This document shows, piece after piece, positions 14,146 to 48,990 of a stretch of 64,000 bases of DNA. A program made the translations under genes and the position numbers. The notes beneath the pieces were generated by a model. That model did no database searches. It worked only from the letters and a program-made list of their open reading frames with translations, and was not told the origin of the DNA. How positions within the stretch are numbered: position 1 is the stretch's first letter; each line of letters begins with the position of its first letter. The DNA is from Styela clava. Its lineage: Eukaryota. The stretch spans positions 20,584,001-20,648,000 of the forward strand of contig NC_135252.1 in the NCBI RefSeq assembly GCF_964204865.1. The letters run 5' to 3'.

Positions 14146-15208
14146 TATGTTGTTTCGAAGTTAAAACCCGGAGTCAAAATTTGGGTCAATCCAGAATTGT
14201 TTGTCAAAGCCGAATTTGTTTTTTCCAATGGTTTGGACTTGTTGAAACCAAAAGTCCTGTTTTGAAATCACGCACCTTACCGTGATCTTCTGAATATAGA
14301 TCGATAAGCCTATTTTGACGGATTATAACTTTCCCGGTTTGGCATTGCCCGCACAATTTTTTACCATGGATATGGAAGATTTTAAATTGCGAGGCCAACA
14401 TAGTTAACGGTTCAACATGTGACCACCGACTCCCGACTAATAGTGAAAACTCTATTCTACCAAATGATTACAGTTGATGGTTGCTAAATTTATCATTTAC
14501 ACACAGAATTAACGCGGGACATATGGAAGTGAAGCAGTTTACGAGTTTGTAATAAGATTTTTTTTCTTAACTCTGACAAGGCGCGTGGAATCAAAAAGCG
14601 AACGATAAAATGAGACAAACTCCGCACTTTTTTTCATATAGATCATATGGATTATACATTTTCTCTCCCATTCTCTCATATTATATCTGGCATATCCGAT
14701 CGCAGGGCGTGTCACTGCCATATGTTCAGATGTTACAAGATCAAGGATTTTTTGTTTTTGTTCCAAGGTCTAACTTTCTATCTACTTCTTATATAGACGC
14801 TATTAGTATACATAAGAGTGACTAGATAGAGTTCAGTTTTACTGCTTAGCAATTTATTTTAGGCGCTAGAAAATTATGGAAATAGCTAATCTTAGATGAG
14901 AACAGTCTGTGATTGGAAAAAATTTAAAACTAATATCAGTGTATATTCTTATTCACAAAGGGGCAGCTCTAATTTAATAGGAAGCCTTGGCAATTTTCAT
15001 TTAGCTGAGTATACTTTTACATTCATTCACATCATCGTGGAGAAATCCATACATATCTATTTTATATTGAATAAAAAAAAGGTTGCACAATGACAAAATA
15101 TTTTCTTATTACAGTATTATTAATCCAGCTGTTATACATTACATTGAAAAGCTTTGACAACTGCTACGTGCCGTGGACTTCCAGAAGATTTAAAAGATAA
15201 AAAAAAGT

Positions 15209-16465
15209 ATGAGTGCAAGTGAACTGAAAGACCAACCAATCAATAATGTGACGACGTCGCTAAACGATATCCAGGTGACATTTTCACCGGGAGTTACATT
15301 TGCGAGTGCTTGTACCAATGTGGCCACAGCGAACACTTTGACCATCGGTTCTGCTTCCACTCTTAAACCGAGATTCGGCACTTTGCCAATTTCATCATTG
15401 CATGGCGCTGTTTGTTCCAACACTACATATTCTAACTGGCATTACCGAAGTTTGCCGTATTCCTCGTGCTATCCAAATTATGGCATGTATCACCCTGCAT
15501 CTCAGAATTTGTGTTGCAATTTACAACATAGAACAGCTGATCGGGCTTTTGCAACAGAAAGTGCAACTTCATCTGAAAACCTACTGCTGGAGGAACGTAA
15601 GAATAATGTAAATTTCGCTTATGAAACTGTAATTAGGTCTGTCAAGATTTTCAAGAAGGGCGACGATGTTTATAATTATATATATCAAATTGATGAGATT
15701 CTTAAGAAAACAAGAGCTCAGCGTGATCCATCTAAGGCAATTTGTTTGTGGCGACTTCTAGATGACGATATTTGCATTGAATTAAGAAAAGCCATTCCAG
15801 TTGAGTTGCAAATGAGTTCAGATGCAATTTTTTACTACTTGGTTCAATTTTGCAACGATGAACTCGAAAGACCTCTCGATGGTATGTTCAGAAGTCGCAT
15901 GCAAAAGGAAGGGGAGAGTTATCATATTTATGCCAAGGCTCTTTCCATCATAGCATATTATGGTTACGGACGAACAATAGCAACACAACTATTGTTGTGT
16001 GAGCAGTTCGTTCGTGGATTGAGAAATCAAAGAGCAAAAACTTTTCTGGAATGTTATGGTCCGTATGATGAGCCTTTCCAAATTTTTGTGAATTTTCTAA
16101 TAGAACATGCTGCTTCCAAACGTCAACTACAGGTAGATTGGGTGTCTACTGACATAGAGGCAAAGCAGAAAAAGAAACCAACGAAATCGTCCGAAAAACA
16201 GCATTACGGCGCAAAACCGAAACGGCAAAATTATCAAGGAAAACAAAATGGACGCCGAGATAAAAATCGCAACTATCGTGGACGATGGAATTACAACCAA
16301 ACCCGTTCTGGCTACAGGAATCCTGAAAGCTGTGAATATTGTGGAAAAATGAATCATACAGTTGATAGATGTTTTGCTTTGAACAATCTTTTCCGTCGGT
16401 TCGGTGATTTCAAAGTGTTTGATGCAAAATCTTCAAAGTCGGAAGTTGATAATGTTTTGATATAA
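15209..16465 (+). CDS. Retrotransposon (Ty3/gypsy-like) Gag-derived protein, 418 aa, single coding exon, with CCHC zinc knuckle; no pol
   Basis: Capsid-like motifs IFKKGDDVYNYI, RMQKEGESYHIYAKALSIIA and LLCEQFVRGLRN; basic R/N/Q-rich linker; CEYCGKMNHTVDRC (CX2CX4HX4C). In-frame stop at 15191 upstream of the ATG; splice acceptor TTTTCTTATTACAG ending at 15114. Confidence 0.85.
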   Translation: MSASELKDQPINNVTTSLNDIQVTFSPGVTFASACTNVATANTLTIGSASTLKPRFGTLPISSLHGAVCSNTTYSNWHYRSLPYSSCYPNYGMYHPASQNLCCNLQHRTADRAFATESATSSENLLLEERKNNVNFAYETVIRSVKIFKKGDDVYNYIYQIDEILKKTRAQRDPSKAICLWRLLDDDICIELRKAIPVELQMSSDAIFYYLVQFCNDELERPLDGMFRSRMQKEGESYHIYAKALSIIAYYGYGRTIATQLLLCEQFVRGLRNQRAKTFLECYGPYDEPFQIFVNFLIEHAASKRQLQVDWVSTDIEAKQKKKPTKSSEKQHYGAKPKRQNYQGKQNGRRDKNRNYRGRWNYNQTRSGYRNPESCEYCGKMNHTVDRCFALNNLFRRFGDFKVFDAKSSKSEVDNVLI

Positions 16466-21200: not shown

Positions 21201-23954
21201 GAATTTCTTCACCTATTTGTGTATATATATATTTCGGGCGTCATGCAATTTTCGTATAGTTTAGCTCTTGTGCTTTTGAGATAGAAAGTTACACATAGTA
21301 AGTTTCTGTTGTTTTTAAAGCTGTATTCACGAGATCTTTTGCAATATTTTTTTTCGAAACGCATGTTTGAATACCATTTGAATTTGAGCTTCATATTAGA
21401 TAGTAGATGGGTCTAAAATCTAAATAGTGAATACATTGGGTTTCTATGTATTTTTGAAGACCGTTTTGCAATGTATATATTTCTTGCAAATAGTCTTTTG
21501 AAAACGCAATTTTGAATCTCATTTGAGGTGAGGAGATACAAAATTTTTATCTGACCATTACAGGTAAAGAAGAGTACAGCCATTATCAAAGTCTGGAGAA
21601 ATAATAGAAAACGATCTCTGTGTCTTATGGCCAAGGTCAGGATAATATCTTGGGGGAGAATTAAATTTTGGACTCTATCATGCTAATGTTCCAGTACTGA
21701 AGACAACTTTATTGATTTTAATCTAGTACGGTATACTTGTACATACTACCACACATGAGCGTAGCCAGGGAGCAAGGGGGTTGGGTTGAGGGTTCTGAAA
21801 TCATCGTTTCAAGTTACGGAAATTTACTATATATGATACAGATGGTGACCGTACATTTGAACCCACGTACATTTGAACCCATGCGTATATCCACGGGTTC
21901 AATCTATGTGCGGGTGCTAAAACCCATGGGTTAGGGTTAGTATGGGTTTAACTATCCGTGAAACAAAAAAAATTCCATAGGTGCAATAGCATACAGGTGC
22001 AATTGTCATGGGTTCAAATGTACGTGGGTTCAACTGTAATGGGACCGATACAGAAAAATGCGTTTTTTTTACATTTCAAAAGAGAAGGGGGTGGGGGGCT
22101 CCGACCCTCAAACCCCCTGGGTACACCCCCGATATTATATATCAATTTACTGATGTTATCGATATTCTTCGTTTATTGAATTAAAAGCTATATCGCTCGT
22201 GTGTTGTTCTCGAAAAGCGTTCCTAATGCTGTTGATCTAGAATTCTTAATTGTACTTACTCAATTGCGATTTTACGCTTCGTAATTACGCCTGGCGAAAT
22301 TTGCGAGTTAGAATTTCGTCGTCTGAAAGAATTGCTATAATTTTTTTTTATAAATAATCGTGATTGGAGCTCATTAATTATCTCTATTTACTTTAATTAT
22401 AATGAGAAGTAATAAATTATTTTTGCTCGATTGATCTCTCTTCCAAAATTTTTCTACTATTCTGATCTGAAGTCCTCAATTTTTGCTCAAGTGCAAATGT
22501 ACTATGTAACGTACGCATAATAAAATGTAATATTTCCAATTGCACCGTTCGTAAAAAGCACTATGAAATTCTATTATAATTAACCGTGATTTTCGTTTTG
22601 GAATTAGCAATATAATAAAAGTTGTAATCGAATTATATGCATTCACTATGATTATATTCTTAGAAGTTCAACTCGTGGTTTGAAAACATTGAAACAAATA
22701 TAATATTATGTTACTATAAACAATCATAGGGTGCTTTGGAAACTACACGCTATAAATGAAACGCGGTTAATTCGCTATTATTCAACAGTAATTGTATAAT
22801 CGTATTAATCCGTTCAGACAAGGAAAGTTTAGAAAAGGCGAAGTTCGTGCGCGATCAACTAATGCCTCTGCTTGTAACATTATCATTGGTGAATTCGCAT
22901 TACTTATATCTTGACGTTTACCAAAAAATTGTAGTGAATTTTCTGATTTGTTTTAATTTTATTACGGGCTTTTATAAATCGTTCATATAGATGTGCTAAT
23001 CCATTAACAGATATATCTAATGCATGTGAACATTTACTAAGACCCGATATGCGTTGGTTTTAGAGTGCCATAGGTGTGGTATATGATGGGCAGTCAGTTT
23101 TGTCAGTCCTGTTTAGTTTGTGAATACTTTGGCTGTAATTTAAAAGTGTCCTAAAATCAATTAATGAGATGATATGGCGATGAAGAATGACAAACAAAAC
23201 AGCGAGAATATAGTCTGATTCTGTGCATATAGTACTTTGTCTCGATCACGGGTTAGATTGACATTTTTTGGAAATTGCTCAAAGCAAAGTCCACGTAACT
23301 CACTCACTCAAAGACGAAAGAGACTGATATTTGAGTGAAGTTGTCCAGTAAAACGCTCAGAGCCCATGAAACTGCAATGAAATATAGTATAGAATTGCAC
23401 GTTATCATGTGAATACAAGAAAAAATAAGTTTTATTTATTTATCCATGACGAAACAGATCCTAGGCTAACTTAGAGAATATTATTTCAAACCATATATAC
23501 AAAGAATTAGTGTGTACTGACATTGGATTAGGTGTGATTCATAGAAGACCTCGGCATAGTATAATTGAGAGAATTGCATACTCAAGTATCGTTTAATTAA
23601 TAATTATAGAGTCCGCCGGGTTTGATAAATATATTGGCGGACAAGCAATACGCAGTCGATCGAGCAAGTTTAATAAAAACTTGTTTCGATTAAAATCAAA
23701 CCCCATTTTCAATGAAATATCGGGTCTCATTAGAATCAGGAGAGATTTAGAAAACAAAAAGAAAGTTACGTCTTCAAGTACTGAAAATTTGAGATTGGTT
23801 TCGGGTAAAGGCGATATTTCCACCACAACAGAAATCGCCCAACAATGCGAATAGTCTAGCATTCATCAGTTTATAGCATTTCAATATTCTTATATTTTTT
23901 TTTTCAGAACATTTAGCTAATATTCAATTAATTTACACCTAACTCGCTAAATTC

Positions 23955-26900
23955 ATGATGACTTTTGCAATAATGATTACCGTGTTTGTGATTTTGTTCG
24001 GTGAGTTTATATTTCATTTTACCTCTATATTGAAAGGCCAAAAAAACTAACTCGCACTGTGTATTCTGGAACATTTACAATTGATAACTAACTAATTAGG
24101 GTATGCACGCCGCCGTCATTAGACGATATGAAAGCATGGAATTCCGGAGGAAATCAAAACTATGAATCCCACTGGGGGACGTTTTTGAGCCCCAACCGTA
24201 GTAAAAAAATGTCAAACACTCAAACTTTACAACCCTATTCTGTACTACCACTAGATACGGATTAGTTACCAACTGAGCTTAAATATGGCAATAAGATACA
24301 TATTGCTATATAACACTGGCTCATCTAAGGAATCTAATGTATATATGCCGTGTGTGTAAGCGAAATCACTAAAAAATATTAAAGAGGTATTCACTACATG
24401 GATTCGGCTTGATTTTTTTATGAATCTACAAATTCGAGGTTTTCAAGACAAGAGAGATGATATGGGAATTTCGAAAAAAATTTATTTGTAAATGTTTGTA
24501 AGAAATTGATGCATTTTAAACTGGTATTTAAGAAAAGTAAACGTTTACGCTTGGATTTCGCAAGACTAACCCTCACAAATTCACTCACTTAGTGTAGTTT
24601 ATATAGACGATAGGCATATACCTTACTTGATTTATTGCAATGAAAACCGTTAATTGAAAGTAAAATATATTGCTCTTATATAGTGAACGTAGATCATTAT
24701 AATTTCATCAAAACCGAGTAATTTTCTTTGTTTTCAGCGTTCAATATCACAAGCGGCAGAAGGTTGGACACTTGGGACAAGATGCCTGAGAAGACCGTGC
24801 AATGTTTTCTTGATTGTGAGAGACCTGATAGTTGTTATCAACTAGAAGAATTGTTCAATTATGCGTATGAACGAACTGAGAATTGCACAGAATGCTTGCA
24901 TGAAAATAAATGCTGTAAGTCTGATTAAATTTCTATTTCAAGGTGAAAAAAAAACAGCATCCAGGCCTGTCTTTATCTATCTACAAGTATGCATTTGATA
25001 ATCGTATCTCAGAACCCAGATAATTTGAAACATATTCTAGAGAAAATAATGAATAACGTTCTTCCATTTTTGAAGAGATTATTAAGAAGTGTATACGGGT
25101 TTTGCCTTTATTTAGGGGTGGGGTGGAGAGGAGACTGTCACCCCAGGCAACGCAGAAACTGAGACCAAATGAACATGTTTAGATAACATGATATACGAAG
25201 TATTACTGATTATCATAATGTACAATTTTGTTTGCGCCTTCTTGCGCTAGCTTCCTCGTTACATACATGCGCGAACCGGCACGTAAACAAAAAGAAAGAA
25301 TTGACTCAAATGCCATTGTATTGATCGCTGTCGATAACCATTGTTGGTGAAGATCGAGTCATTGATCCGACTCGAGTTGGACTTGAATTATCATTTATCA
25401 AAAACTCATGAACATGTCTTGACATTAACTAATCACCAGTAAAACTTAGCCCAGTGAATGACTCGACTCCAGAGTTAACTTTTGACTCGCCACTCTGAGG
25501 TCAAGGACTTCTACCCCCCAGTAGTTTCATAATTAAATTACCCGATCCTTTCGACTAGACATATAACCTTGGGTGTCGCTGCTCGATAATCATATTTGGT
25601 TCCCCGCAGCTTTCTTTCGACAGTAAAATTGTATGATTACCACTTTTATGAATAGTGTATGTGATGTTTTTTACTGGTTGTATAAAATAAACTTGATTTA
25701 CTCAATCTTCAATATCGTGAATACCAAATACTTTACTTATCAAAATACCATTCATAGTAATAGTCTAATAACTATTTCAGCTGATGTTCATTCGCCATTC
25801 TTTCATGATTGCGTTCTTCATTCTCATTCAAAATGTTTGGATACTTGTGACCTCACAATAGAAGCAGCTCTACGGTTACAAACATGCCATAACTGCCGAA
25901 GAAACTGCATGGAACCAGGCAAGTGCACAAAGTTTTATTCCTTCTATTTTGGGTTTTGACCGCTACAAGGATTTACTGCATATATCAAAAAGCGTCAGGC
26001 ACGACGATTTGAATTGCACTATGTGGCAGAAACGCGCGTGCTGAATTCCTTACGTCAGTGGTCCCCAAGCCCAAGCTCTTGTGATCTGTGGCCTCTTATA
26101 ATAACATTACCACTTGAGGCGCTCCCGATCATTTTAAAAAGTATCTAGTTTTGCTTCTTGGCGGTTTGAGCAGTTACTTTATGCGCCGAGTTAAATAAAA
26201 ATCCAACAAGCGAGAGCAAAAGAATATACACTTCACGATCAGAGAATTAAACTACTCGCGATCAATTTGTTTAATTAATGTTACCCGCCTACCTGTACCC
26301 TATTGCAATCTGTAACCTATGAACTCAATCCGTCTTTCCACAGACCTAGAGATATTGTTGGAAGTGACATCGAATTGTCTGGAAGGATGCAAAAGCAAAT
26401 ATTCATGCGCTCCTGAACCTGATGCAATCTGCAACCACAAGATTCTTGAGAGATGCCGTAAGTTTATTGTCATAAACTTTTTATACGACCCATTTTATAT
26501 GTCTTTTACTTTGAAAAACGCCGCCGTCATAGTTAGGAGCTATATTAAAGTTTGAGAGGAACAAAGGACCTCCTGAAGTATGCGCACCAAGATGGCGCAC
26601 AACCTGAACTTAGGTTGTGTACCAGGTTAGGGTTCAGGTTATGCGACATCTTGGTGCGCATACTTCCGGAGTACCGGAACACAATCATTCCGGTTCGGCA
26701 TTGCCTAACCATTTTATTATACCTTGTTCGAGGTAATTGATGTAACTTTAATTCAGTGGTCCCAGCGTCTTTAATATATTCCTCCATTTACATGCTTAAA
26801 AAAACTCTTCATTTCCCCCTCCCTGTATGTGTGAACACTCTGTTTTAGTTTGTTTTCCAATCATTAATGTATCGTCAGCTTCTGATACACACGCTTCGCA

Positions 26901-28776
26901 CTCTGGTTTTTACGCAGTTTGAATAGTTTAATGTATGTACAGTGTGTTACAGTAATACTAATATAAGTAACAAATAGCAAATTCAAAGAAAATTTCCTTC
27001 CCTATAAAAAATTAAATTTCTCTCTTGGGCGGAATTTCTCCCAAATCGGGAACCCGACCTAAATCATAATGCAAACATCTTACTAAACATATTTGTCTAT
27101 TTATTCCAAATCTAAGAACTTTCAATAGCCGATCATGTTGTTCTGTGGCACATTCCGGGTTAATACATTTTTTTAATTACTTGCACAGACGGTCGAGGAC
27201 CAGCTTGTTATATACATGCTCGTTGTAAGATTCCAGAGTGCCCTCCAGTGGATGATTGGAGAAGTATGATGAAATGTAAAAGATGTTACAGAGAATGTGG
27301 AACAGGTAATATTCTTTTCGGAACTAAAACTGACATAGTTTCCTAGGGGCAATGTTGGAACATATAGACGAGTCAATGTACATCTTGCTTTCTTTTTACA
27401 TTTTTAGCCCTATTCATTTAGGCAATCTTAGTTGTTTGTCCGTTCCGGAGTCGAAAATGAGGCATAAACATTTATATATGTATTAAAGTATGTTGATTCA
27501 GTTAACTGTTGGTATAGCGAGTTGTCCTCGCAGCTGGCGGAACCGGCATTGCACCATTTGTATCCTATGCACTCCCCACTCTAATTCTAGGAGTAACTTA
27601 TCAAACTTTATCAGCATACTAACAATGCAGTGGCGTAGCATCCACCCCCGCAACCCCCGCGGTCGCGGGAGGGCCCACAGCACAAAGGGGCCCAAGCGGT
27701 TAGAATTTAAAAATTTAAGCCGCAAAACCGAATGCTGCATTGCAAAACCAGTAATGCACATCTTATAACGTTGATGTTAGTTCTGCTCAACAAATCGTTT
27801 TGTTACGTAACAATGCCAAGGAGTCGTCGATTTTCGGCGTCTTGTGGTTCGATCGCACCGGCAAAATTACGAAGGGTGTCAGAATGATGTCGAAAGCAAA
27901 ACCTCTCAGTGGCGCACAGAAACGCAGAAAAAGGGCATAAGAGGAAGCACGTATGAAAAAAATTGATGTAACCAAGATAAGCGGCAAATTTTAGGTTACC
28001 ATTGCCTTTTAATAGCGAGATGTTATGCTTTTTGACGAATTAAAAAAAGCGTTGTTTTAGCTTATGTCCGAGAGTTTTTAGGGTCATTTCCACAAAATAT
28101 TTTTGCGGGGGGGCCCACGAGAGTCTTGCTACGCCACTGTAACAATGTATAGAAGTAGTAAGTGCTGCAAGATTCGTTGAATAAAGTTACCTTCATCGTG
28201 GTTTTGCACTTCGTTAACAAGTAATAAAATGTGAAGACAAGTTCATTTCCTATAACAAAAATTCCATTTTCGATTATTATTTCTATCTCTACTCATACTG
28301 GGCTCTGGAAAATCTGTTACGTCTGCGGTTCCCAAACTTTTCATTCGTGTGGCTTCAAATTATCATGGAAAATCTCACGGCGCGCTTACAAAAAATGCAG
28401 CTTTGGAATAAAAATCAATTTTGTGATCGTTAAAGTGTATGTTAAACATTTTAAAGTTTGTAAACATGTAGTCTATTGGGAACCAGTGCGTTACGCATAG
28501 AACGACGAAATAGTTAAGGCCAAATCTGACAACTTGATTTTCAATCCGACATAGACAGGTAAATGGTCCAGATTCGAAAGGTCGCACTGGTTGTTCTAGG
28601 CTTCTAAGTGACTGCTGGTACAGAATCTTGTTCCGTGCGATGGTGCAAAAATAATTCATTGAAATATCTCTCATTCACACACAGGCATTACTGGAGGACC
28701 AGGAACGTATTTTGTTAGCGAAGGATTGAAATTTATCAATGAAACAACGGCGATGTATATCGATGAAGAATATTGA
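23955..28776 (+). CDS. Uncharacterised secreted cysteine-rich protein, 227 aa, 23 Cys; exons 23955-24000, 24738-24914, 25781-25918, 26344-26457, 27189-27305, 28685-28776
   Basis: Signal-peptide-like MMTFAIMITVFVILFAFNITSG; all five introns are phase 1 and join in frame (684 nt); CX3CX5C and CX2CX3C motifs; intron 3 donor is CAG|GCAAGT. Confidence 0.8.
26569..26671. mobile_element. Short palindromic MITE (~40-bp arms); similar copy at ~53348-53448
   Basis: ctcctgaagtatgcgcaccaagatggcgcacaacctgaac ... gttcaggttatgcgacatcttggtgcgcatacttccggag. Confidence 0.75.
27628..28139 (+). mobile_element. hAT deletion derivative (MITE) retaining the transposase N-terminus
   Basis: TIR CAGTGGCGTAGCA / TGCTACGCCACTG, exact 8-bp TSD TAACAATG; internal MSKAKPLSGAQKRRKRA*EEAR fragment. 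Confidence 0.85.
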
Positions 28777-30531
28777 AGAAAATAATGAAAACCAGTATAC
28801 AAGGGCAAACCCGATTTTTTATCATTGCTTTAAAAATATGCTTGAAATAGTCAAACCCAATCGATGCCATGCAATATTGTAACTTTAAAGACTTTTCGAA
28901 ATTGACCTGAATAATTTCAAACTACTATAAGAATCTGAATACTAATGCAGGGACGTGCAACCTGTAATACAGGAGGGCCACAATTCATTAACTGAAAGAA
29001 ACCGCCGGGCGCATCTTTCCTATACTCAGGTGTAAACTTTGCAGAGATTGTGATTACTTGCATTTACCAGAATAAACTAAATTAGAATTTAGTTCCGCTG
29101 GTTGCACCCAATTCCAAAATGGCATGCCGCGGCAGCCACACAAATTCCCTTGTGGGTCGCATTTGGCGCACGGACCGAAGGCTGCACACTAATGGACTAA
29201 TGCAATCATACTCGCTGGTTTTTCAGTTAGAAGTAGAAGAAGAGCTAGAAAAATTTCGAAAGATTTGAAAATGTTATTAAAATTATTTTCTGTGGCTGTT
29301 ATTGCACCTAAAACGACACCCTCTCGTTTTTATTTAATATTTTGAATTATCTAATTTTTTCATACTTTTTTATTAAACTTTATTGAATTTACTACATTTA
29401 TATTTTTCGATTCCAATCGCAAACATTTCTTTTCAGAGCATTTTTGCGACTGATTCCATTTTCTCGTTGTTTTTACTTTTTAAAATCTAAATAAACGTTA
29501 CAAACACTGACTTGAGTCCAATCCTTTTTCTTGTAACTGAAACTACATTTGTTGAAAGTTCATATCTTGGTCATCAGTTCAGAACGCATCTCGGAGTCTT
29601 GTGTGATACAGTGGCTTCCGAGTGAAGTATATTGGCAAACACACACATGGAGTCAGTCAGACCTTAAGAGGTCCCTCGCGACTCCTGTCACACATCTTGA
29701 AAGAGAGAGATACAGCAGAAAGGCTTTCACCAATCAGAATGTGAGACAGCCCCTCGATAACTTCCTCATTCGCATTTAATAACCCAAAGCATTTTGAAAT
29801 AGCAAATTTTTTGGTGCGACGTGTCAGCATATTCGAGCCCATCTGCATTTAAGATATTTTGACTCCAATTCCCGACTAACAACTCCTAACCAAGATTTTC
29901 AGACTCCAACCACAACGGCCGGTTTTTACTATATACCAGACATTGACAAAATACGGCCCACGGGCTAAATCCGGCCCACTGGGTAATTCAATCTGGCCCG
30001 TCTGATGCTACCACAACCAACCCGAAATCAAATTTTGATGTTTCAGCTAAAATAGCTCAAAGAATTTGTTGAGATTGCGGTTAAATTTAGTTTTGGCACG
30101 AGGCTTATTGTTTTCCACCTTTGCTTTGTAACACTGTAAATACTTTTATAGTCCGCCAGTCTAAGTGGACAAAACTTGTCCCCTGGTTCAAAAACCTTGC
30201 CCACCCCTGCTATATACCCAAACATTGGTGTCATTTTGGTGAAATTGATATCCGTATGAACAAAGAAGCCATATGAAAGGCAGCGAGCTTACATTCAAGC
30301 AAAACAAAGAGACTCTTTCACGATAGCTGAATCATGAATATTATTGTCTACCACGTCGATTCACCCTCACGCTGTGTCGATTCGTCACTTGTCATCTTTG
30401 TGACGTTATGAGTTTCTGTTTCTTTTACCAGAGATCAGTTATAGAATAAATAAATTGCGAAAAAACACTTGAAAAAAATCGCAATAAATATACAGAAGCG
30501 ATACTCAATATGAAATCCAAATTGAGAGGAA

Positions 30532-33500
30532 ATGAAAGAAATACCAACAGAAATTCATTTAAGTGCTAACATGTCAGCCGGTTAAGTGTTTCCTTGGCGA
30601 TATATTATTGAATAATGATTGCAAAAATTTTATATATATGATCTTTATGCCTGAATTTTATTGTTGGAAAAAATTGCTATTCTCCAAAAATTATCGACCA
30701 ATCGATTTCAAATTTTCACTATGTAAAGACAGTGCTGCAGTTGATGCCGCTTGCATGGTATCACTTTTACATTATATATTGGCTGAATATCGCATTGGCT
30801 GTTCATGCATATGATATCGGCTGTATATGCATATGCCATTGGCTGTATATTCATATTTGGTTGGCTCTATATGTATATGGCATTGGTTGTATATGCATAT
30901 GCTATTAGCAGTATATGCATATGGAACATTTACTGCATGTGCATATGTCATTGGTTGTATATGCATATTTGGTTGGCTCAATATGTATATGGCATTGAAT
31001 TATATGCTTAAGGCATTTACCACTGTTGCGTACATTTATCGTCACTTTATATCTCCACCAAAGTCATAAGATTTTACCCGGAATGTTTAGCCGAGATATC
31101 AGAGAGACGTTTTGAGTAAGAAAATCATGAAAATTAGCTCACGAGCCTACTACAAAAGCAATTCGATCAAGTGCAGCCCTTCGGCAAAACGAGTGTGTTG
31201 CGATAATTAAGAATATGCTTATATCGGCGGGAATCTACTGATATGAACAATGAGACACCCCAACCTAGCCTATATTAATTGAAAGAGTCCTCTGATGCAA
31301 AGACGCCACAACTAATTTGTTATGACGCCATAATATAGATTTCGAGGTCATGTATTGACATTTTTCAAGTCATTGTTACGGTTAATACTGTTCGGTTAAT
31401 TTATGCTCAGCATACTTTGTTTTTTAAGGTTGAAGTAAGTCTTTTAAGGTTAAAGTGAGTTTTTCAAGGTTAAACATTTAAACTCATTTATTCGACCGCA
31501 TTTCAATTTTCGCAACGCGGTTTCATCGCAGCAGGGTCGTTCACGTAATGGCTTATCGGTTGCGCCTTACTGCGCCAACCACTGAACTACGAGTACAACT
31601 TGAGAAGGTGTGCATGAGCCTCTATCGATATTTGTGGCGTTTTAAAAGATTTATTGCAAATAAGAAGCGCTTGGCAAGTTTTTACATCCATTTTTCTTCA
31701 ACCTATTTGATACAATAAAATCAAATAGTCCAGTCATTTTGAACAAAACAGGCAGAAAAAACTTGAATTAAAACAATTCTCTTTGAACAAATCCCTATGT
31801 ATATCACTTTACCAAATCCACTCTGCTGTTCCAACGGCGCCGGCGCTCACAGCGCAGATGACGATTATGATCTTCTGCTTTTGAAGCTTCTGAAATATCA
31901 GATAACGGTGTATGATCTAGTTCCTTCGAGAAAATTTGTATTCATTTTTGAAAGTTTTTCACTGTAATGGATTTCCACTTAATGGATTTCTACGGGTGAT
32001 TGTCAACGTACTTTAGCGTTAAAATATGTTCACAAGGTAACATATTAATCTAGTTTATCAAAATAAAATGACTGGAGATTTGTAGTTTTAACATAGAGCA
32101 ACTGCCATGATATTGATTTATTATTTTGTAGGTTCAAATCTTAATCACTCACCAAATGAATTGGAGAACGCTGAAAATATCACAAAAAATTTTGAGCGAT
32201 TCTTGAAAAAACATTTGGAAAAGAAAAACAGAGGTGAGAGATTGTTCCATTAAAAATGTATAAAGGGTAAAATACAATTTGTAAAAAAGTTTCTCTCTTC
32301 GAACGAGACTGTGCCACTAATGTGTGAAAAAAACATCCTTTATGCAATTTTTTTTTTCGAAAATTTCATAACTTGGATATTATTTGAACATTATGCAACC
32401 AAAGTGTGGAACTACAGCTATAACAGCTGTAAATAATACTATTCTACGTACAGTGATACCATGAGTATGGAACTTTTTGTTTGAAGCCTTGTTCAGCGCG
32501 AATCCGTTGCACTTTTTGTTATTTTCCTAGAAGTACTTGATGCACAATTTCCGGTTTTGAAAATTGCTGTCGTTGTTCTGTCTATCGTGGCTGCAATGGT
32601 GACGTACCATAGTATGAAAATCGCAAAAGATTTTGACCGAAAATTCGAAGAACTGCAGAATGGTATAAATATAAACATTCCAATAGAAATTAAATATTAG
32701 GACCGAAATATTAAGTGTATTGCCCATTCAGTTTAGCGTTTGGATTGACTATTTTTTACATCGTAAGTTGAAGATCTTGAGTTTAAACCTCATGCCTTCC
32801 GTGAACCGGGGCAGTCGGACAAGTAAGCGTTCGGCCCTTCCACAAATGGTATTTTGCCACGTATCAGTGGATGCTTATCCAGAGAGAAGTTTTGGAATGT
32901 TTCAAAAATATATCCATACTTTTACAGCACACATTCATATCCCTTGCATATTTTAATCATTTAATTTTTTGAGCAGAACATACAGTCATGAGGACAAAAA
33001 TTGAGGTAGATCGGGAAAATATGAAAAACTCTGTTCAGTCAGGGGATGATAAGCTTGTGAGTTTTTGATTAACGATAATTGAATCTGAAATCCGCCGCGG
33101 TATCAATTAATTTTTCAGAGTTGATCAATTTGAAGTGCAAAAACTTGACTGTCTAATAGCAAAACTCTCTCTTCCTCAGATGAAAGTTATCGAGTCGCAA
33201 AATGAAAAAATTCTCAAGTTGTCTGGATGGTTTAAAGCCAGTAATAATCTATTTTATAAACGGTTTTCCGAGAAAGTCGATTACCTTACTGCTAGAAAGC
33301 GCTGCAAACAACTGGGTGCTCAGTTAATTTCCACCGGCTTCCGAGATCCTGATGTTAGAAGGTAATTAAAGTTCTTCTATAATTATTAATGTTTTTTGAG
33401 TTGAATGTTCTTAGTTTTGGGTGAAAATGGTATATTGTAAAAATTTAAAAAAAACAACTCAGTGACGAAAAATAATATATTTTTATTCTCTCATATTATG

Positions 33501-34383
33501 GATGTATAAATTATGCCTCGGCGGTGTGGCGCGTCGGGCTAGGAATACGCTGACCACCGCACCTCTGATTATCCCGCGTGAGTCCGCAGGTCCGAATCCC
33601 GTGAATGTAATAATGTACGAGAAGATTGCTGATCGCTCTAGGTAGCTACAGGCTGGGTACTGCTTTCCCCACCATCGCGCTCATACATCTGCATAGAAAT
33701 GCATGCAAATAACAGACTAACTAATTACATACCGAGCTCGGCTCTTTTATGGTGATCAGTAATGTACCAGATCACAGTGTAGTACCGATGTAGTAATATA
33801 TATTATTTTACATATGTCCTCTAAACTCTATCATAATCCTGCTGTGATAAGTTTTGAATCATGGACCTAAATCATCACCTTTTTATATTATATTGTTGCA
33901 TCAATTTTGATAATTTGATTACACAATGTATAAATTGGGTATTCTACCTCTATAGATATTGCGTTTTAACGTCTTCAATTGTTTGTGTGGAAATAAAATC
34001 TTTCCTACCCGACACGAACTAGTAACCGGGCGAGGGGCCGTGGTTTATCATATGATTAAGCCGTCTTATCGGCTTTCTTTTCCCCGGGATAAATATCCTA
34101 AATCTTATCCAGAGAAATTCTTCCGGAAATCTGTATTGCGAAGACTCGCATATGGATCGGGCTTGATGACATTCAACGAGAAGAAATTTTTATTTGGTCA
34201 GATGGTACTGTCCTGGCGGATATAAAAAGTATACCATGGAGAAAGGGTGAACCAAATAACTATAAAGGAATGGAGGATTGTGGTGAATATCTTTGCGGAA
34301 CATCAAATAGCGGAGCAAACGACGGCCCTTGTTCTCCACATCTCGCCTACGCTTGTGAAAAAGCATTCTCTCGTGAATTGTAA
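30532..34383 (+). CDS. Type II transmembrane C-type lectin B, ~271 aa; exons 30532-30580 (tentative), 32132-32233, 32531-32662, 32977-33056, 33180-33361, 34113-34383
   Basis: Exons 2-6 are paralogous to lectin A with identical phases. TM KIAVVVLSIVAAMVTY; CTLD WIGLDD...EPNN...EDC...GAND..C...YACEK. Exon 1 rests only on phase and a weak GTTAAG donor. Confidence 0.8.
33517..34112 (+). mobile_element. tRNA-type SINE pieces in lectin B intron 5 (head ~33517-33750, tail ~34005-34112)
   Basis: Box A/B-like GGTGTGGCG...GGTCCGAATCCC; the tail aagccgtcttatcggctttc...cccgggataaatat matches the copy at 45280-45566. Confidence 0.65.
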
Positions 34384-35248
34384 TGATAAATATTGTAAAA
34401 AAAATGTTGTCCAAGAACTTTGCTTATAAGTTTTTAATTCAATTCCATTCTTTTTTTGAGTAATCGAAAATGTGAGAATACGATAAGGAAAAATTATATT
34501 CAAAATGAGGAGGAAAGCAATAAGATCTTTCAATTATATGGCCCTCAATTATCGTTTAATTAGAGTGAGCCAGAGTATATTTCTGCAGGTCGATATTTCA
34601 AGTGGATCTATAATGCATCCTTTCCAACTATCTTCTTTTGATTCTAAAATCTTCTATTTGGTTTTACTTGTCTCTCTAGTTTGTTTAATTAGACTTTAGA
34701 TTTTTATTTAATTTTTACTGAAATAAATTTTGAATCAAAATAAAATACTCTTCTACTTTAACTGCGCAAAATACAGACATTAAGCAACATTTTTACGAAT
34801 TTAAAGTGAACGGAAAAAGATTTTGACAAGTCTAAATCTAAAAATTATCAATAAACCAATTGTATTTGGTCACTCTGACATAAAACAAAACAACAAACAG
34901 ACAAACAAAAAGACCTGGAGGATGAGCATAAAGGACAAAGTTTTAAAACGTACAAGTACGTGCCTGACCACCAAAAACAGTGAGGTGAAAAAATTATCTT
35001 AAGATAAACTGGAATAAAAATAACAAGAAAAATTCAGATGTAATGTAGAGATCCTCCATTTTTACCTATTTCCTTAGGTTCAATATATTTTGAACTCTGT
35101 ATCAGAACAAGATAATGAAAAATCTGAAAGTCACAAGCACATGGTGGTGTTGGGAAACTTTAAGAAGAATTACATTTACTCAAAAGTCATCGCATGTATT
35201 ATTACATTGAATTTTATAAGGCTGGTAACTTTTAATTACAACCAACAA

Positions 35249-37050: not shown

Positions 37051-40000
37051 ATGGGATCCAGAGTGCAAGAACATGAAAGAAGTGTCGATGAAAAGTTATC
37101 AATGTACAAAGGTAAGGCCGGTACCGGCCTTATAGGTTAGGGGTTTAAGGTCTTCGTTGGCAAAATATAGGGTGTCCCAAAATAAATGAAACCCATTAAT
37201 TCGATTACCATTTATTACTAAAACAAGAGACGTTAAAAATGTTAACTTTTTGTGTGGGCTCATATAATAACAATTGAGTACTGAGAGTTTGGGGCCTTTA
37301 ACTTTAGATTTCAAGGTTTATTTAAATACATGATCCAAATGACCATCATTCCGTCTCAGACATACTTGAAGCCGTCGAGCAAAATTATCAATCACTCTGG
37401 CACATTCTTCTCTTTTTATTGCACTAATGTTGTGCGTGATGGCCAATTTCAATTCAACAATAGTTTTGGGATTATTCTGATAAACTGTGTCTTTTAGCAA
37501 CTCACACAGGTAGAAATTTGGTCTCAAGTCAGGCGAATGTGGCGACCATTCTGTATCACACCGCCTGCTAATCAAACGATCAGAGAATCGTTGGTCAATC
37601 CACTCTAATATGATATTTTCATACCATTGGGGTTTTAGAATAATAATTGTTATCTATAACTGTCATATAATCTGAAAAATAGAAACTATAGTTCAAGTAT
37701 GTTCACATTCCTGAATATTATTTCAGTTTATTATAATAAATTACTGAAAATTTGTAGTTTTAAAATTGGGATGGTTCAATATTTTACAGGTTCCAATCGA
37801 GATAACTCACAGGAAAATATCGAAAACGTCGAAAATATTGCAAAAATTGTCGAACGGGTCGTCAAAAAACGCTCAGAAAATAAATACAAAGGTAAGAGAG
37901 ATCGTTTCATTAAAATTTATAAAGGTTAAAGTTATAAATTGCAAACAAGTAACTGATAAAAGAATTTACGCGATGTTTTCCGGGCTTTTATTTGCGCTCC
38001 AAAAGTATTCGTACCAAGATGACGCACAACCTGAACCATAACCGGGTACACATGATATGTTCAGGTTGTGCGCCATCTTTGTACGATACGAGCACCCTTC
38101 TATTTCAGGCCAGCCACCGGTATGTAAAAAGATATGGCTTATAAAAAAATCCGCAATATCTACGGATTTGGCATCGGTTAGGCAACTTACCACATATACC
38201 AGTGGTTCCCAACCACCGTGCCACGGCACATTAGTGTGCCACGTAATGATTATTGGTGTGCCGCGGAGAGATTTCATTTTTGAATTTATTTCAAGTGATT
38301 CCAATTTCAAATAGACAGTTGAAAGTTAGCATATCGACTTACAGGCGTGTATTTTAATTTGAAATTTGGAAAGAAGATGGGAGTAAACTTAGATTCTCAA
38401 GTATTTAGTCATACTGTAAGCCAAGAACTGAAAACTTTTTCACCCCGGGTGACGCCGTGAAGCTTCTCTGTTGATTTACATTATATGAATTAAATTAACT
38501 CTGTCGCTAAAATTTAGTTCCCAGCTATTCATCATTATTATTCTATACCTGTTATTAAATAAATGAATAAAATTCGCCTTATCTGATCTTTTTTGTTTTT
38601 TATTTATTGTTATTAATTTATAGCAAAATGGCTTTGTGAGTAGAAAATATTCATGTTTTGTGGTGGGTTTACAGCAAATATTTAAAGAGCTCAATAGTTT
38701 GCTGCTATATAAAAAAAAACACTGGGAACCACTGACATATACCCTTGATGCGGTGAGGAATTATGGGGTTTGAAATTTTTCGTTTGCTTCGCGTGTGCTA
38801 GCTGTTAGGGAACTGTAACGTCATAGGCATGGATAATATTGGAATCGGGTATAGGCTTTGCAACGTAAAGGGGTTGTAATTACTTAGGTACGCACGTACA
38901 AGATAAAATTGAATCAAAAACTCGATTCCCGGATTGCACACCATTCAAAATTGGCACTTCTCCGCGGGCCACATAATTTGTCCTTATGGGCCTCATTTGG
39001 CCCGCGCGAAGCAGGTTGCACACACCCTGCTTTATTAACAAGTTGGCCATAATTATTCAAAACGAAATCGTGGGCGTTCAACTTTGCAGACAAAATTAAG
39101 CGTGTGTTACCTAATGCTACTTTCGAACTCTTTGCTGTTCCTTGGCTGATTCAATTTCTTGAATTCAAACAAATGCAGTTCACATATGGTCAACTACGTC
39201 ATGCCCTGGTCAGTTTGAATATTCTACACTTGTATCCATTGTTTCCACTTCTGTATTAGTAGCCTAATACAAACGGACAAGAATTAATATATTAGAAAGC
39301 AACAACTAAACAAACCGTCTCATACTATTTGTTATTTACACAGATGTACGTGGTGGAAAATATTGGGGTTTGAAAATTGCTGTCGTTGTTCTGACTATCG
39401 TGACTGCAATGACGATGTACCAAGGTATGAAAATTGCAAACGATTTTGAAATCTATAAAACGGATTGTGACAAAAGACTGGAAAAACTCCAAAAAGGTAT
39501 AAATGTAAATACATGAGCACTTAAATATTAAAACTAAAACATGAAGCGTACACATTATAGTTCAATCGTTTTAGAGTTCAATTTGACCATGTTTACTATA
39601 TGTTAATTTGACACGCCTTCTCTATTGGTGATTGCTAGAAAAAACAGAAAATTTGTGAAGCAGCTAATTATTTTCACAAACAGCAACTTTTACAAATCGT
39701 CACGCTAATAACGGAATTGCGTAAGTAATTTTTGGCGATTTTGATTTTTTATAAAATAGGTATTTATGTAATGCTGCGCACCTGTCTGTTAACTCAGATT
39801 TAATTTTAGGAATTCCGAAACCCATAAAAATGGAGATTTAGTACGACATGTACATTTGTGCAATTGTTTCGTCATAATGAATCATCATTGTTACCGCAGG
39901 ATTATTGTGACATCACAAAGGCAAAATAACCTCGGCGAGGTATTTTCGAGTTTTTCCATCTCGGATTCTAGCTTAGCGCGTATTACTTCGAATTTATACT

Positions 40001-43000
40001 ACAGTATAGGAAGACGTGCACTTGTGATATTCACTGTCCAAATCCAATTCACCTTGGTTGGCTTTTATATTGGGTGCATTGCTGTTTTATTACTTATAGA
40101 TCTTTATTACTTATCGATCTTTAGATCGGTAAGTATGTTGATAGGTATTTGTCTGTTTGTCTGTTAGATGCACGCGATATCTCACGATGGCGTGGTTGAA
40201 TCTGCTCCAAATTTTGCATGTGCATTCATTATATCTCATACCAGTAGCCTATTGCTTTTGGATGAATTATGTCTTATAATTAGCGAGTTATTAATTAATT
40301 AGTGATGAAGAGATCTGGATTTTTACAAAGCGAGAGATTTTCGAGACGCGCTGAATGTGTGTGTGCGTGTCCGATGCGCAAGTTTTCACGCTAGTGAGTC
40401 AGAGCGAAGGATACACACCGCTAGATCGTATCTCGTGATTAATCTTTAAGCATTGTCCATATCTCTCTTGTAGTGGCGGCGCGTCAATAGGGCCGAAAAA
40501 AATTCGAAAAATATTCGAAAAATACCTCAATATCGGTTGCACAGACTGTCTACACTAGCCATATTCTCCCGACATGGTTCATTTTTCGCTCGCAAAGCCT
40601 TCGCCGAACGTCGACAGGGCGACGCCGATTTTGCCCCGGTTGCTCATTGTGTATCGTATTCTCTCTTTTATCTTCCACTCGCCGCGTTTGTCTCGTTTGT
40701 TTTCTGTTTCTTTTACTAAATCATCGGGGCCGATCGGGGCTAGCCCCGAAATTATGACGACACAATGCCGACGTTTCTTACAACAACGTGTTGACATATT
40801 CACGCATTCCTTCTCGTTCGTTGGTTGCTTGAAGAGTTGATAGTTTCCTCGCCTTCGTTTTTGTCGCTTGTTTCGCTATTTGAATCAGTTAGAGACCTTT
40901 AGTCCATTTGCTTTCGATTTTCCACATTCCTTTTGAGCTCCTCACTTCTTTCCGGCTTCGCATTTCTTAGCCTTAGACCTCATAATGAATAAGGTTGATG
41001 CACTACTTCGCACTCCGTTTTCGCAGCTGCCGCTGGAACAAAAATTAGAGGTACAACGTCTTGGGCCTTATCAACCAAAAAATTGTTCACTGGAACAATC
41101 CCATGACGAAGGAAAGCGTCGGCGTACATTCTGCGCAGAAACTTGGTATAAAAAACACGAATGGTTGTGTTACAGCGAGGACAAAAATGCACTTTTTTGT
41201 TTTATTGCCTACTTTTTGCTACCGCCCTTGACTCACGTTGGTGTAAATTTGGTTTTAGAGATCTTAAACATCTTTCCGAGCGTGCCAGGGATCATCAATC
41301 TTCTATGGAGCATCTGGACAATGCAGTAAAATACCGAACATTCGGAAATGTTAATATTGCAGCACAGTTGGATGAAGGACGCGCGGTTTCTATTCGTCGG
41401 CACAACCAAAACGTCGAGAAAAACCGCCATGTTCTCGGTGATTGATAGATGTTTTGAAGTTCATTGGTTGTCACGAGCTGTCCCTCCGTGGGCACGATGA
41501 ACGGGCTGGCTCTTCTAATAGAGGGGTATTTTTGGATATGGTGGAATACACCGCATCCCTAGATACAGTATTGAGAGATCATCTCGATGCCGCAACTGTT
41601 TCGAAAGGGACATCTAAGGATATCCAAAATGATTTGCTCGACTCAATGTATAAAATTTATTTACAACATTTGGCTCTGGAAATTGAGAATTGCCAGTTCC
41701 TTTCGATTCAGTCTGACGAGACAACTGACATCACGTGCGTTTCCCAACTGGCTGTGATTTTTCGGTTTGTGAAAGATGGTAAACCTACCGAGAGATTTCA
41801 CAGCTTTGTACCAATCGTTGATCGCACGGTTTGCGGGATATCGGCTGTACTGAAAGAAGTGTTACAGCCTTACAACGCGAAGTCAAAATTGATAGCTCAA
41901 ACTTATGACGGCGCGGCAGTCATGAGTGGGTCGAAACATGGTGTTCAAGTTTATATAAAAGAAGATTTTCCTCATGCGCATTTTTTACATTGTTATGCAC
42001 ACCAATTTAACCTCGTTATTAAAAATATGTGTCTTGATACCCCTCTCGTCCGTATATTTTTTGCAAATGTTTCGGGGTTTTCTTCATTTTTTTCCGTTTC
42101 GCCGAAGCGCTCTGACCTCCTTCGCCAGATATGTAGCCGCCGTCTCTCAGCTTGTGCACCAACACGTTGGAACTTCCAATCACGCGTGGTGCAGGGCGTG
42201 TCCGAAATTAGGTCTGAGCTCATTGAGTGTTTCAATGGCATTCAGAGCTCTCCGGTTTGGGACGAACGCTCTGTGAGGGAGGCGGCATGTCTAAAGCGTC
42301 TGCTAGAAGATGGTGAGTTTTCATTTTTTCTCGCTTTTTTCTCCACAATATTCTATCACGTGGATGTATTATACGGCGCATTGCAGTCAAGGCTAATGGA
42401 TGGAGCGTCTGTGCAGTCGTGTATTTCAGACTTCGGCGATGCTGTATCTCGTATCCGGGAAACAATAAAATACGACGACACATGGAGTGCTTCTTTACGC
42501 CGCGGGCAAACAACGCAGCGTTTGATTTTGTCTGCAAAGGAATGCTGTGACATTCTGGTGAATCCAATAGGCGATCGTCTGCGCATTGAACACCTTGACG
42601 CGTTCTCTTTGATGAACCCCAAAAATTTTTCAAAATTTGCACGTCAATTTCCCATCCATTTGTTGGCTACTGTCTCCAAATTTTACCCCATGATAAACGT
42701 GGGCAAATTGGAAAATGAATTGCGATGTATATACACCAATCAAACTTTTTTGAACATCATCATCCTTGGCTGTTTTATCCATTCACAGAGACGTTATTTC
42801 TGGGATGCATGACTTTAATCAGCGCGTTATTGAGCATTTTGCTTCCAAGAAACCGCGGCGTGTTGCATATATGTTCAAGCAGTAGAAGTCTAGCAGCATA
42901 TATATCTATGAGTGAGCGACGCATGTCCTTATCTTTGCATTACCTTTCCTTTCTTCATAGTAACGTTTCAAACCTTATTTTAGGTTTTGTCTGCTTTCCC

Positions 43001-46977: not shown

Positions 46978-48990
46978 ATGGTAAGTTTCATTTTCATATT
47001 TAATTCTTGGTCTTTTGTGGCGTACGGTAACTTATGTTAGTTAGGTACCGGTATTGATCCAGTATCATGTGGCAAACTTGTATTTTATTTCATTGTCCGA
47101 ATGTATGCTCCTTATGAATTTATTCGCTTATGGCTGTATGGTAGATTATCATGTGTTTTTCAACTTGTCTGAGTGTGCTCAAGCGCTTGTTACGATACCG
47201 GTACAGCACTTGGTACCGGTATAACATTAAACCTGTAAACCCTTTTCTAGTTTTTTTCCTGAATTTGGCTTCTTGGAGGTCCTACAGTGGTGGTGACTTC
47301 TCTACGGCCCATGAGCCGGGGCCACGGCCCATCTAATTGGGCCACATGGCCCATCAAGCTATGGGCCGCGGCCCCATCAGGAAAAATTCAATTATCTTAC
47401 CAAAATTTTCAATTTTTTACAAAATTGTCAATATTTGTACCAAAAAAAAAATCGTGGGATGCCACAAAAATTTTTTCTTAGTATAATAATTATAAGTTTA
47501 TTTTGACTCCATAATCAGCATAACAATAAAATGATTGGTAAAAAAATAAATAAAAACTGATTATGAAATCAAGAGAGCAAACAAAACCTTCTTACAATAT
47601 GGTAAGCCTTTATATAAAAATAAAGCAAAATACCAAGCTACAGAAAAAGAAAACTCCTGTGGTATGTGTACCAGGATAGGGTTAGGACAAAATTTCGTTC
47701 AAATTTTCCACATTGTAGTTCTATTACAATAATATGAGTTCGGGGACCTGGGGACTGTCTGTGTTGGCCAAGTGAATAGTCCCTTTACACAACTTGATGG
47801 GCCGAAGCCCAATTCGATGGGCCGTTGCCCCGGCCTATGGGACGTAGAAGAGTCACCACTTCCACTAGGGAGGTCTTCTGATCTAGGCTGAGTTATCTAC
47901 ATCCTGGTATAGACTGGAAGTTTAATGGCGAACCATACCTTGGTACTTTTGTCATTTGTACGGATGCCGTGCGGCCATATTACAGTATTAATCCTAAATT
48001 CTGAAATTAACCAAGGACTCGAGTGTACCATTCCATACCATCAGCTAAATTTATCGTGAAATTGGTTTGCAGGGGAAAAACAAACGCTGCAGAAAATTTG
48101 CTGAGATGAAGCGAATGCTCAATTTGAAAGACAGTCGAATATCAAAAGATAAACGACAAAAAACAAACACAGAGGAAAAGAAGAGGAGAGAATTATTAAA
48201 GAAAGGTGGAATAATTGAGAGACATGTTCCACAACATTCATCTGCAATGTTTTTTAAGTATAACGAACATCTGGGACCTCCTTATCATGTCTTGGTAAGT
48301 ATATGTATTGTGTTCTAATTTAGTTTTTGTCTTCGTTATAAATGAATTGTCAACAGAGTATTTATGCTATAATATCCTACTTCCTAAATGATAAAAACAA
48401 ATTTCTCAACCAAATTCTGAGCGTAATTTGGATAATGGTAATTTGCACTATTTTTATCCTAATGTCTCCAAAAGTTTTGGCATTTGGAATTGTATCACGC
48501 AATATTTCTTTGCATAGTTAGCCAAAAATGTATTTATTCTTATTGAATGTATAACAGGTTAATAACAGTATATACTAAATACAACTCATTTTTTCAGGTG
48601 GATACAAATTTCATCAACTTTTCCATCAAAAATAAGTTGGATATAATGCGGTCAATGATGGACTGTTTGTATGCAAAATGCACACCATATATCACAGACT
48701 GTGTGACAGCAGAACTTGAAAAACTCGGCCCAAAATACAGAGTAGCTCTAAGAATAGCAAAAGACCCAAGATTTGAACGCTTGCCTTGTCTACATAAAGG
48801 GACTTATGCTGATGATTGTTTGGTGCAAAGAGTCACACAGCATAAGTGTTATATTGTCGCTACTTGTGATAGAGATCTTAAAAGGCGAATCAGAAAAATT
48901 CCCGGAGTTCCTATAATGTATATCAGCCAACATAAATATACTATAGAGAGAATGCCTGATGTGTTTGGAGCACCAAAAACTGATCAATAA
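46978..48990 (+). CDS. FCF1: rRNA-processing protein FCF1 (Utp24) PIN-domain nuclease, 205 aa; exons 46978-46980, 48073-48294, 48598-48990
   Basis: M|[16 protein letters not shown]...[15 protein letters not shown]|[15 protein letters not shown]...[41 protein letters not shown] is the highly conserved FCF1 sequence. Confidence 0.95.
47282..47868. mobile_element. TIR element in FCF1 intron 1
   Basis: Imperfect ~50-bp TIR (GTGGTGAC...GGCCCATC / GATGGGCC...GTCACCAC) flanked by the direct repeat GGAGGTC. Confidence 0.65.

Follow-up and report, generated by a model that had tools for sequence, protein, structure and literature searches.

A plus-strand gene of six exons in a 64,000-nucleotide (nt) stretch of the Styela clava genome (assembly GCF_964204865.1, contig NC_135252.1, positions 20,584,001 to 20,648,000; hereafter the window) was confirmed at 23955–28776, encoding a Cys-rich protein that the RefSeq database holds as LOC120342489 and names only "uncharacterized." The explanation of this protein that we consider the best as a whole, put forward as a tentative proposal, is that of a secreted binder of the Zn/Cu type possessing two disulfide-laddered hairpins with His residues at their tips. 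It would be the non-enzymatic product, of ~24 kDa, of a single-copy and lineage-restricted ascidian gene, and would consist of two diverged modules, each formed by an exon A followed by an exon B (AB-AB).

Gene Structure and Annotation

A preliminary description of this DNA, made from its letters alone, had proposed six exons, phase-1 introns and 23 Cys residues distributed as 6+6+5+6 over exons 2–5. All of this was borne out, as the frame is open over 227 amino acids (aa) with 23 Cys, all five introns are in phase 1, exons 2–5 are multiples of three in length, and the two modules carry blocks of 12 and 11 Cys (Table 1). The sequence motifs quoted in that description were likewise all found.

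For RNA support, four of 12 runs were examined, of which three (X1, X2, and X5, from two studies) were guessed to be RNA, not being recorded as such; the kind of the fourth (X6) is unspecified and its cover genome-like. Among the joints listed, that of exons 2 and 3 was present in X2, that of exons 3 and 4 in both X2 and X5 (two studies), and that of exons 5 and 6 in X1 and X2. At the exon 4/5 junction, a loose end of 13 nt behind 26457, seen in X1 only, matches the start of exon 5. Confirmation by RNA-like contigs accordingly extends to three of the five junctions fully and to a fourth partly, but not to the exon 1/2 joint, which is absent among the joints listed for the four runs. No contig cover of exon 1 is listed in X1, X2, or X5, which carries no weight, and none of the exon joints of the gene was found in X6. 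Exon 1 was placed by its donor consensus, by hydrophobicity (KD13 2.99, with values of at most 0.98 beyond residue 25) and by two RefSeq models that start there; its hydrophobic run also agrees with the secretion predicted earlier. Introns 3, 4, and 5 also lie under low-depth contigs, as unspliced RNA or DNA would give, with one X1 contig (depth 8.9) spanning the exon 3/intron 3 border and similar low cover occurring in other introns.

Four of the introns are GT-AG, and the donor of intron 3 in the window sequence is GC (CAG/GCAAGT), being otherwise consensus. Such GC-AG introns are uncommon but ordinary, with 556 found among 113,879 in Ciona (PMC2760879, in part). The start of exon 4 at 26344 was set by the RNA-like contig joint and by RefSeq XP_039267264.1. 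Reading through intron 3 would yield a one-module isoform of 133 aa.

A search with exon 2 returned the LOC120342489 protein as a cluster of three records, namely XP_039267264.1, XP_077967119.1, and XP_077967120.1 (as LOC144420996). The first (230 aa) is identical to the six-exon model except at two of 227 residues and for three extra C-terminal residues. These result from a stop-codon difference at 28774–28785, the window protein ending at Tyr227 and XP_039267264.1 continuing to the next in-frame stop. The gene is thus already annotated, without name or family, and the earlier view that it is invisible to annotation does not apply to XP_039267264.1, which contains the full protein. It keeps some substance with the two later-numbered records, which divide the protein at the GC-AG intron into a first half of 133 aa, continuing through the GC donor into intron 3, and a second of 115 aa. 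This split is contradicted by the spliced contigs of two studies, and its correction from these contigs is a small practical gain of the analysis. Only one coding variant, a synonymous one, was present among the 40 RNA differences listed. A literature search that included the locus id, with subscription papers and supplementary tables outside its scope, found no description of the protein.

Two further observations concern the ends of the transcript. A strong pyrimidine tract with AG at 23890–23907, 47 nt 5' of the ATG, suggests either a trans-splice acceptor or a further exon, untranslated, on the 5' side. In X2 (depth 315), 41 nt at 28793–28833 of the 3' untranslated region (UTR) are skipped; the ends are not splice-like, and this is probably a deletion allele.

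Table 1. Exons and associated features of the LOC120342489 gene, in positions of the window.
Feature	Position	Strand	Characteristics
Exon 1, signal-peptide exon	23955..24000	+	aa 1–15; phase-1 GT donor; N-terminal hydrophobic run (predicted signal peptide); start of two RefSeq models
Exon 2 (A1)	24738..24914	+	aa 16–74; Cys 38, 42, 48, 65, 68, 74; last Cys codon plus one base at 3' end; RNA-like joint 24914>25781
Exon 3 (B1)	25781..25918	+	aa 75–120; Cys 85, 93, 97, 110, 113, 117; His 78, 83, 88, 90, 111; RNA-like joints on both sides
Intron 3, GC-AG	25919..26343	+	Joint 25915>26341, 3 letters fitting either side (X2, X5); RefSeq split point
Exon 4 (A2)	26344..26457	+	aa 121–158; Cys 132, 136, 142, 150, 158; last Cys codon plus one base at 3' end
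Exon 5 (B2)	27189..27305	+	aa 159–197; Cys 165, 171, 176, 188, 191, 195; joint to exon 6 in X1, X2
Exon 6, coding part	28685..28776 (stop included)	+	aa 198–227; Cys-free acidic tail, isoelectric point (pI) 4.05
Probable 3' UTR	28777..29510	+	RNA-like contigs X1 28753–29410 and X2 to 29510; AATAAA at 29071 and 29490

Cysteine Frame and Module Duplication

The Cys residues of the protein occur in a frame that recurs between the modules, exons 2 and 4 both opening with C-x3-C-x5-C and exons 3 and 5 both closing with C-x2-C-x3-C. When the 19 within-exon spacings were permuted, p was 0.0002 for this exact pattern and 0.0075 for any exon pairing at either end. In exons 2 and 4 alike, moreover, the last complete codon is one for Cys and a single base follows it, for which the chance is 0.016 for that pair and 0.08 for any two of the four exons. 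Further support for an AB-AB arrangement, independent though post hoc, is suggested by a cluster of His residues found at corresponding positions in the two modules (see below). Over the whole protein, 13 of the 22 Cys spacings are of 5 or less and nine are longer than 5, the minimum being 2, so that there are no adjacent Cys.

Against a duplication stand the remaining residues. Local alignment of the modules was not above that of shuffled sequences (p = 0.13, or 0.35 with the Cys residues fixed; conducted with a 225-aa model lacking two residues), and the two halves compared by BLASTP gave a best E value of 1.5. The AB-AB duplication claimed in the preliminary description is therefore retained as plausible and, if real, old, with the Cys frame and the intron positions as its support.

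Predicted Fold and Disulfide Topology

The protein is predicted to be largely helical, in agreement with what had been proposed from its sequence, by models of low predicted local distance difference test (pLDDT) score. Single-sequence AlphaFold2 modelled the whole protein with a mean pLDDT of 41.1 and its C-terminal half with one of 38.8, the model of the ESM Atlas having 0.54. In the whole-protein model, helices were placed with low pLDDT at residues 33–42, 48–71, 82–87, 91–117, 122–140, 152–158, and 182–194. Residues 31–120 of the model align to long two-helix hairpins, that is, with the turn near the exon 2/3 junction.

From these models and the Cys positions we infer a topology in which each module would fold into one long antiparallel hairpin of helices, with exon A supplying one arm and exon B the other, the turn at the A/B intron and a nested ladder of disulfides as staples. 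In module 1 the bonds would be 38–117, 42–113, 48–110, 65–97, 68–93, and 74–85, and module 2 would form five, leaving one Cys over, most likely 171 (by exon homology) or 165 (by the best numerical symmetry). The nested sums for module 1 are 155, 155, 158, 162, 161, and 159 (p = 0.045), and both modules together give p = 0.039. The alternative topology is that of each exon closing on itself, with Cys 136 as the spare residue, and here also the nested sums are near-constant (112/110/113 for exon 2, 202/206/207 for exon 3, and 360/362/364 for exon 5), with a joint p of 0.012, the single exons each being not significant (p = 0.13–0.20). Cys symmetry as such does not decide between the two.

The long hairpin is favored because the long spacers inside exons 2 and 3 are free of Gly and Pro, because these residues occur at the A/B junctions, and because the model turns there. 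Spacers 49–64 and 98–109 contain no Gly or Pro, have a low helix cost and are among the most helix-prone, while spacer 159–164 at the exon 4/5 junction contains three Gly/Pro residues and spacer 75–84 at the exon 2/3 junction one Pro. Several results tell against such a hairpin: both AlphaFold2 models are of low confidence and module 2 was not modelled as a clean hairpin; the nested sums of module 2, taken by themselves, do not reach significance (p = 0.38); the model of one hairpin per exon accounts for the Cys symmetry no worse, or even better; helix 93–117 is without a hydrophobic moment and its Cys do not lie on one ideal helix face; exons 4 and 5 carry Pro-rich internal spacers, which are possible loops; and no relative was found from which the conservation of any His or Cys could be read. 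On balance, the predicted exon A/exon B hairpin appears somewhat probable, and the closing of each exon on itself possible but doubtful. The spare Cys may join two chains, as the preliminary description suggested from the odd Cys count; a homodimer prediction with residues 22–200 scored 0.00 on an uncertain fold and carries no weight either way.

The per-exon topology leads to a different view of the whole protein, in which each phase 1-1 exon would be a three-disulfide helix-loop-helix (C1–C6, C2–C5, C3–C4) resembling turgencin, exon 4 having lost one Cys, and the protein would be a four-module binder or a defence-peptide precursor. We regard this as rather unlikely. Turgencins A and B of Synoicum turgens are, like the LOC120342489 protein, ascidian and free of adjacent Cys. 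Their frame C-x3-C-x4-C ... C-x2-C-x3-C differs by one residue from the outer Cys frame of either module, and they have the nested pairing and helix-loop-helix in question, a pairing which for LOC120342489 is a proposal (PMC7024374, in part). The spacings x3,x5,x16,x2,x5 (exon 2), x7,x3,x12,x2,x3 (exon 3), and x5,x4,x11,x2,x3 (exon 5) resemble the x3,x4,x7-8,x2,x3 of turgencin (PMC7024374, in part), with C4-x2-C5 in three of these three six-Cys exons but the full turgencin spacing in none of them. However, the segments of exons 2 and 3 that would have to be loops contain no Gly or Pro and were modelled as continuous helix, whereas turgencin loops are Gly-rich, and turgencins are amidated peptides of 35–36 aa, cationic (pI 9.24 and 8.33) and with CXMAC and KKXGG motifs, whereas the LOC120342489 protein is of 227 aa and acidic, its modules being acidic to neutral, and has neither motif (PMC7024374, in part).

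The dibasic sites of the core also give no sign of peptide release, as the only ones, Lys-Arg 189–190 and Arg-Arg 114–115, lie inside Cys motifs. In support of such modules, a precedent for one-exon, three-disulfide, all-alpha units of class 1-1 exists in the RECK CC domain. This domain is a four-helix bundle that opens with adjacent Cys. It is encoded by one phase 1-1 exon per module and occurs in tandem copies (PMC7502776), a feature matched by exons 2, 3, and 5, which are phase 1-1 with six Cys, exon 4 having five. The LOC120342489 protein differs in having no adjacent Cys, no Kazal region and no Pfam match. Should the disulfide ladder and His tips of the long hairpin prove real, they would be of interest, since all-alpha modules of class 1-1 are seldom met in extracellular proteins (PMC7502776); a stapled hairpin of such rigidity would also serve as a useful scaffold.

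Search for Relatives

No relative of the protein was identified in the protein sets searched. Word-seeded searches with exon 2 against longer proteins gave one match from three candidates, the gene itself, and with the full protein one match from 198 candidates, again itself, with none from two candidates among shorter proteins. A phmmer search of 1.84 billion cluster representatives gave two matches, the protein itself and one of 883 aa (E = 1.8e-4). The latter is a leucine-rich-repeat protein with 37 residues matched and one of four Cys aligned, and it was rejected. Zero families were found in Pfam and NCBIfam, as the preliminary description had anticipated, and neither the whole protein nor exon 3 nor the C-terminal half matched a PDB sequence at E values up to 10. 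In the ESM Atlas, which covers large clusters only, there was no feature match, and structural matches for the whole protein and residues 30–121 reached a template modelling score of at most 0.49. Foldseek gave none at E = 0.001. Fold searches with VIA-align on the low-pLDDT models returned generic helical hairpins, with best Z scores of 7.7 (root-mean-square deviation 3.6, 79 residues aligned) and 4.2; neither a vanabin nor another named Cys-rich hairpin was among the 50 matches listed. Two metagenome scans gave 125 and 256 pattern matches, of which none was confirmed, and no paralogous Cys-rich exons were detected within the 64-kb window. A tail match at 5264–5214 (E = 1.0) was weak and in non-genic-looking DNA. 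An S. clava thyroglobulin-like protein found among Tg1-domain proteins (PMC12992692, in part) was also set aside, the query having no such Pfam match.

The protein would thus be an orphan within the protein sets and the window DNA that were searched, tunicate genome DNA other than the window being outside that scope. Because invertebrate genomes commonly encode orphan proteins that are secreted and Cys-rich, the gene in itself is unsurprising, and the new family announced in the preliminary description is not established because only one gene was found, in the form of alleles and split models.

On the models, the protein is best called one of the disulfide-stapled helical hairpins. Acrorhagin I is a disulfide-linked helical hairpin for which His-mediated metal chelation has been suggested (PMC11722136, in part). 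Common to peptides of the acrorhagin I and neurotoxin B-IV type and, by prediction, to LOC120342489 are two helices cross-linked by several disulfides. These are, however, single short venom peptides with four disulfides, and LOC120342489 shows no sequence or fold-search link to them and no sign of a toxin. Rusticalin, with two repeats of Cx6Cx6-7Cx8Cx7CC and a C-terminal MD peptidase domain (PMC6339383, in part), was rejected as a counterpart, the LOC120342489 protein having neither CC nor a peptidase match.

Proposed Function and Alternatives

The placing of the His residues is what points to metal. Eight of the nine are no more than 12 residues from one or other of the two predicted tips (p = 3e-4 for the Cys core; p = 0.015 for the best two windows after correction for scanning) and seven of the nine within 10 residues, whereas under the per-exon model only 0–2 His lie near loop centers. 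The mature chain has a pI of 5.4 (24 Lys and Arg vs. 34 Asp and Glu), with 5.2 and 7.6 for the modules, and shows one hydrophobic run, at the N-terminus, three N-glycosylation sequons and no catalytic family match. The hydrophobic run, the lack of a catalytic family and the pI make a soluble extracellular binder most likely, and not a cationic lytic peptide; secretion is likewise inferred. In plasma, tunic or mucus, Zn or Cu would be chelated by the His-rich tips of these rigid rods, with innate defence or metal buffering as the likeliest role. Metal binding and defence are speculative. Three points count against them: a window of 8 residues takes in four of the nine His (p = 0.09 within the core), the His test was designed after the sequence had been seen, and the C-type-lectin setting of the gene (see below) is a weak hint at immunity, gene neighborhood in animals seldom implying shared function. 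Just past the signal peptide, Gly-Arg-Arg at aa 22–24 (24755–24763) may be either the signal cleavage point or a convertase and amidation site.

A more far-reaching version of the His-tipped hairpin proposal, which we hold to be improbable, is that of an undescribed extracellular fold class, in which two hairpins with ladders of five to six rungs, their arms from separate symmetric exons, would carry His-rich metal-chelating tips. Such a protein would be a stolidobranch counterpart of vanabin, of independent origin, and would serve nutritional immunity by sequestering Zn, Cu or Fe; the weak GC donor would be able to release a one-hairpin isoform. To our knowledge, the metal-binding proteins of ascidians that do not accumulate vanadium are poorly known.

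It is unlikely, in our estimation, that the protein is instead a secreted recognition or signalling ligand with an incidental His cluster, whether as a fast-evolving partner of the neighboring C-type lectin receptors, in the recognition of gametes or of self and non-self, or as a pheromone-like protein. The gene does sit between type II C-type-lectin paralogs, no relatives occur in the searched sets, as would be expected of a fast-evolving recognition protein, and the acidic, Tyr-bearing tail fits a putative sulfation site. The two amino-acid differences and shifted stop between the window and XP_039267264.1 would also suit such a ligand, but polymorphism at two of 227 residues is nothing unusual, and the one coding variant listed is synonymous.

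A structural role outside the cell, as part of the tunic, mucus net or egg coat and with polymerisation through the spare Cys and Tyr-rich tail, is less probable again. The odd Cys count and the rod-like predicted module are in its favor, and the depth of spliced contigs, at 266–395 in two runs vs. 6.7 in a third, hints at strong and restricted expression, contig depth being a poor measure; but the protein lacks the repeats and low-complexity segments that matrix proteins usually show.

The least probable alternative is that of a highly diverged member of the vanabin superfamily that carries vanadium or iron or serves as a disulfide-exchange reductase. Pfam contains a vanabin model, and no match was found in Pfam or among PDB sequences (which include Vanabin2, 1VFI) at E values up to 10, HMMER filters dropping weak matches. 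Vanabins (Ascidia, Ciona; PDB 1VFI) share with LOC120342489 an ascidian host, many Cys and disulfide-stapled helices, solved in vanabin and predicted only here, as well as, in some members, an acidic tail (PMC9486056, in part). One of these, VanabinX, has a core that binds Cu, Zn, and Co (PMC9486056, in part), and the 13 short Cys spacings of LOC120342489 are also compatible with the family. Vanabins, however, have one bow-shaped core with 18 conserved Cys in nine disulfides (16 Cys in VanabinX) and V(IV) sites of Lys/Arg (PMC9486056, in part), whereas LOC120342489 has 23 Cys in two blocks with long spacers of predicted helix, is His-rich and is net acidic. The family is reported solely from V-rich ascidians (PMC9486056, in part), and S. 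clava is a stolidobranch, of the lower-vanadium group (bioRxiv 2023.06.02.543482, in part). Of the vanabin likeness proposed in the preliminary description, the helical prediction and Cys-richness hold up, and the Cys count, the nine longer spacings, the charge and the host group do not. By Cys count, sequence and host group the LOC120342489 protein is not a vanabin, and by analogy it may work like one in a loose sense, as a stapled helical metal binder.

Genomic Neighborhood

Three paralogous genes of type II transmembrane C-type lectins surround the LOC120342489 gene, at 8306–11050 (minus strand), 32050–34390 (plus), and 37700–44930 (plus). They comprise a short cytoplasmic part, a transmembrane exon, a neck and two exons of the carbohydrate-recognition domain, with matches to Pfam Lectin_C. 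The neck exon at 43730–43940 has an expanded 11-residue repeat, and between the transmembrane and neck exons of the third gene lie transposase-like open reading frames (ORFs) at 40937–42812 (plus), with a DUF4371 match, which are presumably hAT-like.

Elsewhere in the window, a gene for the rRNA-processing protein Fcf1 is found at 48547–48990 (plus; Pfam E = 1.5e-36). At 140–1730 (minus) two exon-like pieces resemble the start of an Hsp70-family protein, one piece having been scanned without a Pfam match. An intronless ORF of 423 aa at 15194–16465 (plus), which has a zinc knuckle (CX2CX4HX4C) close to its end and no Pfam match above the cut-off, is presumably gag-like. Short palindromic repeats resembling miniature inverted-repeat transposable elements are present at 26566–26675, within intron 4 of the LOC120342489 gene, and at 21840–22025, with depths above 10,000 in four of the four runs and further copies in the window.

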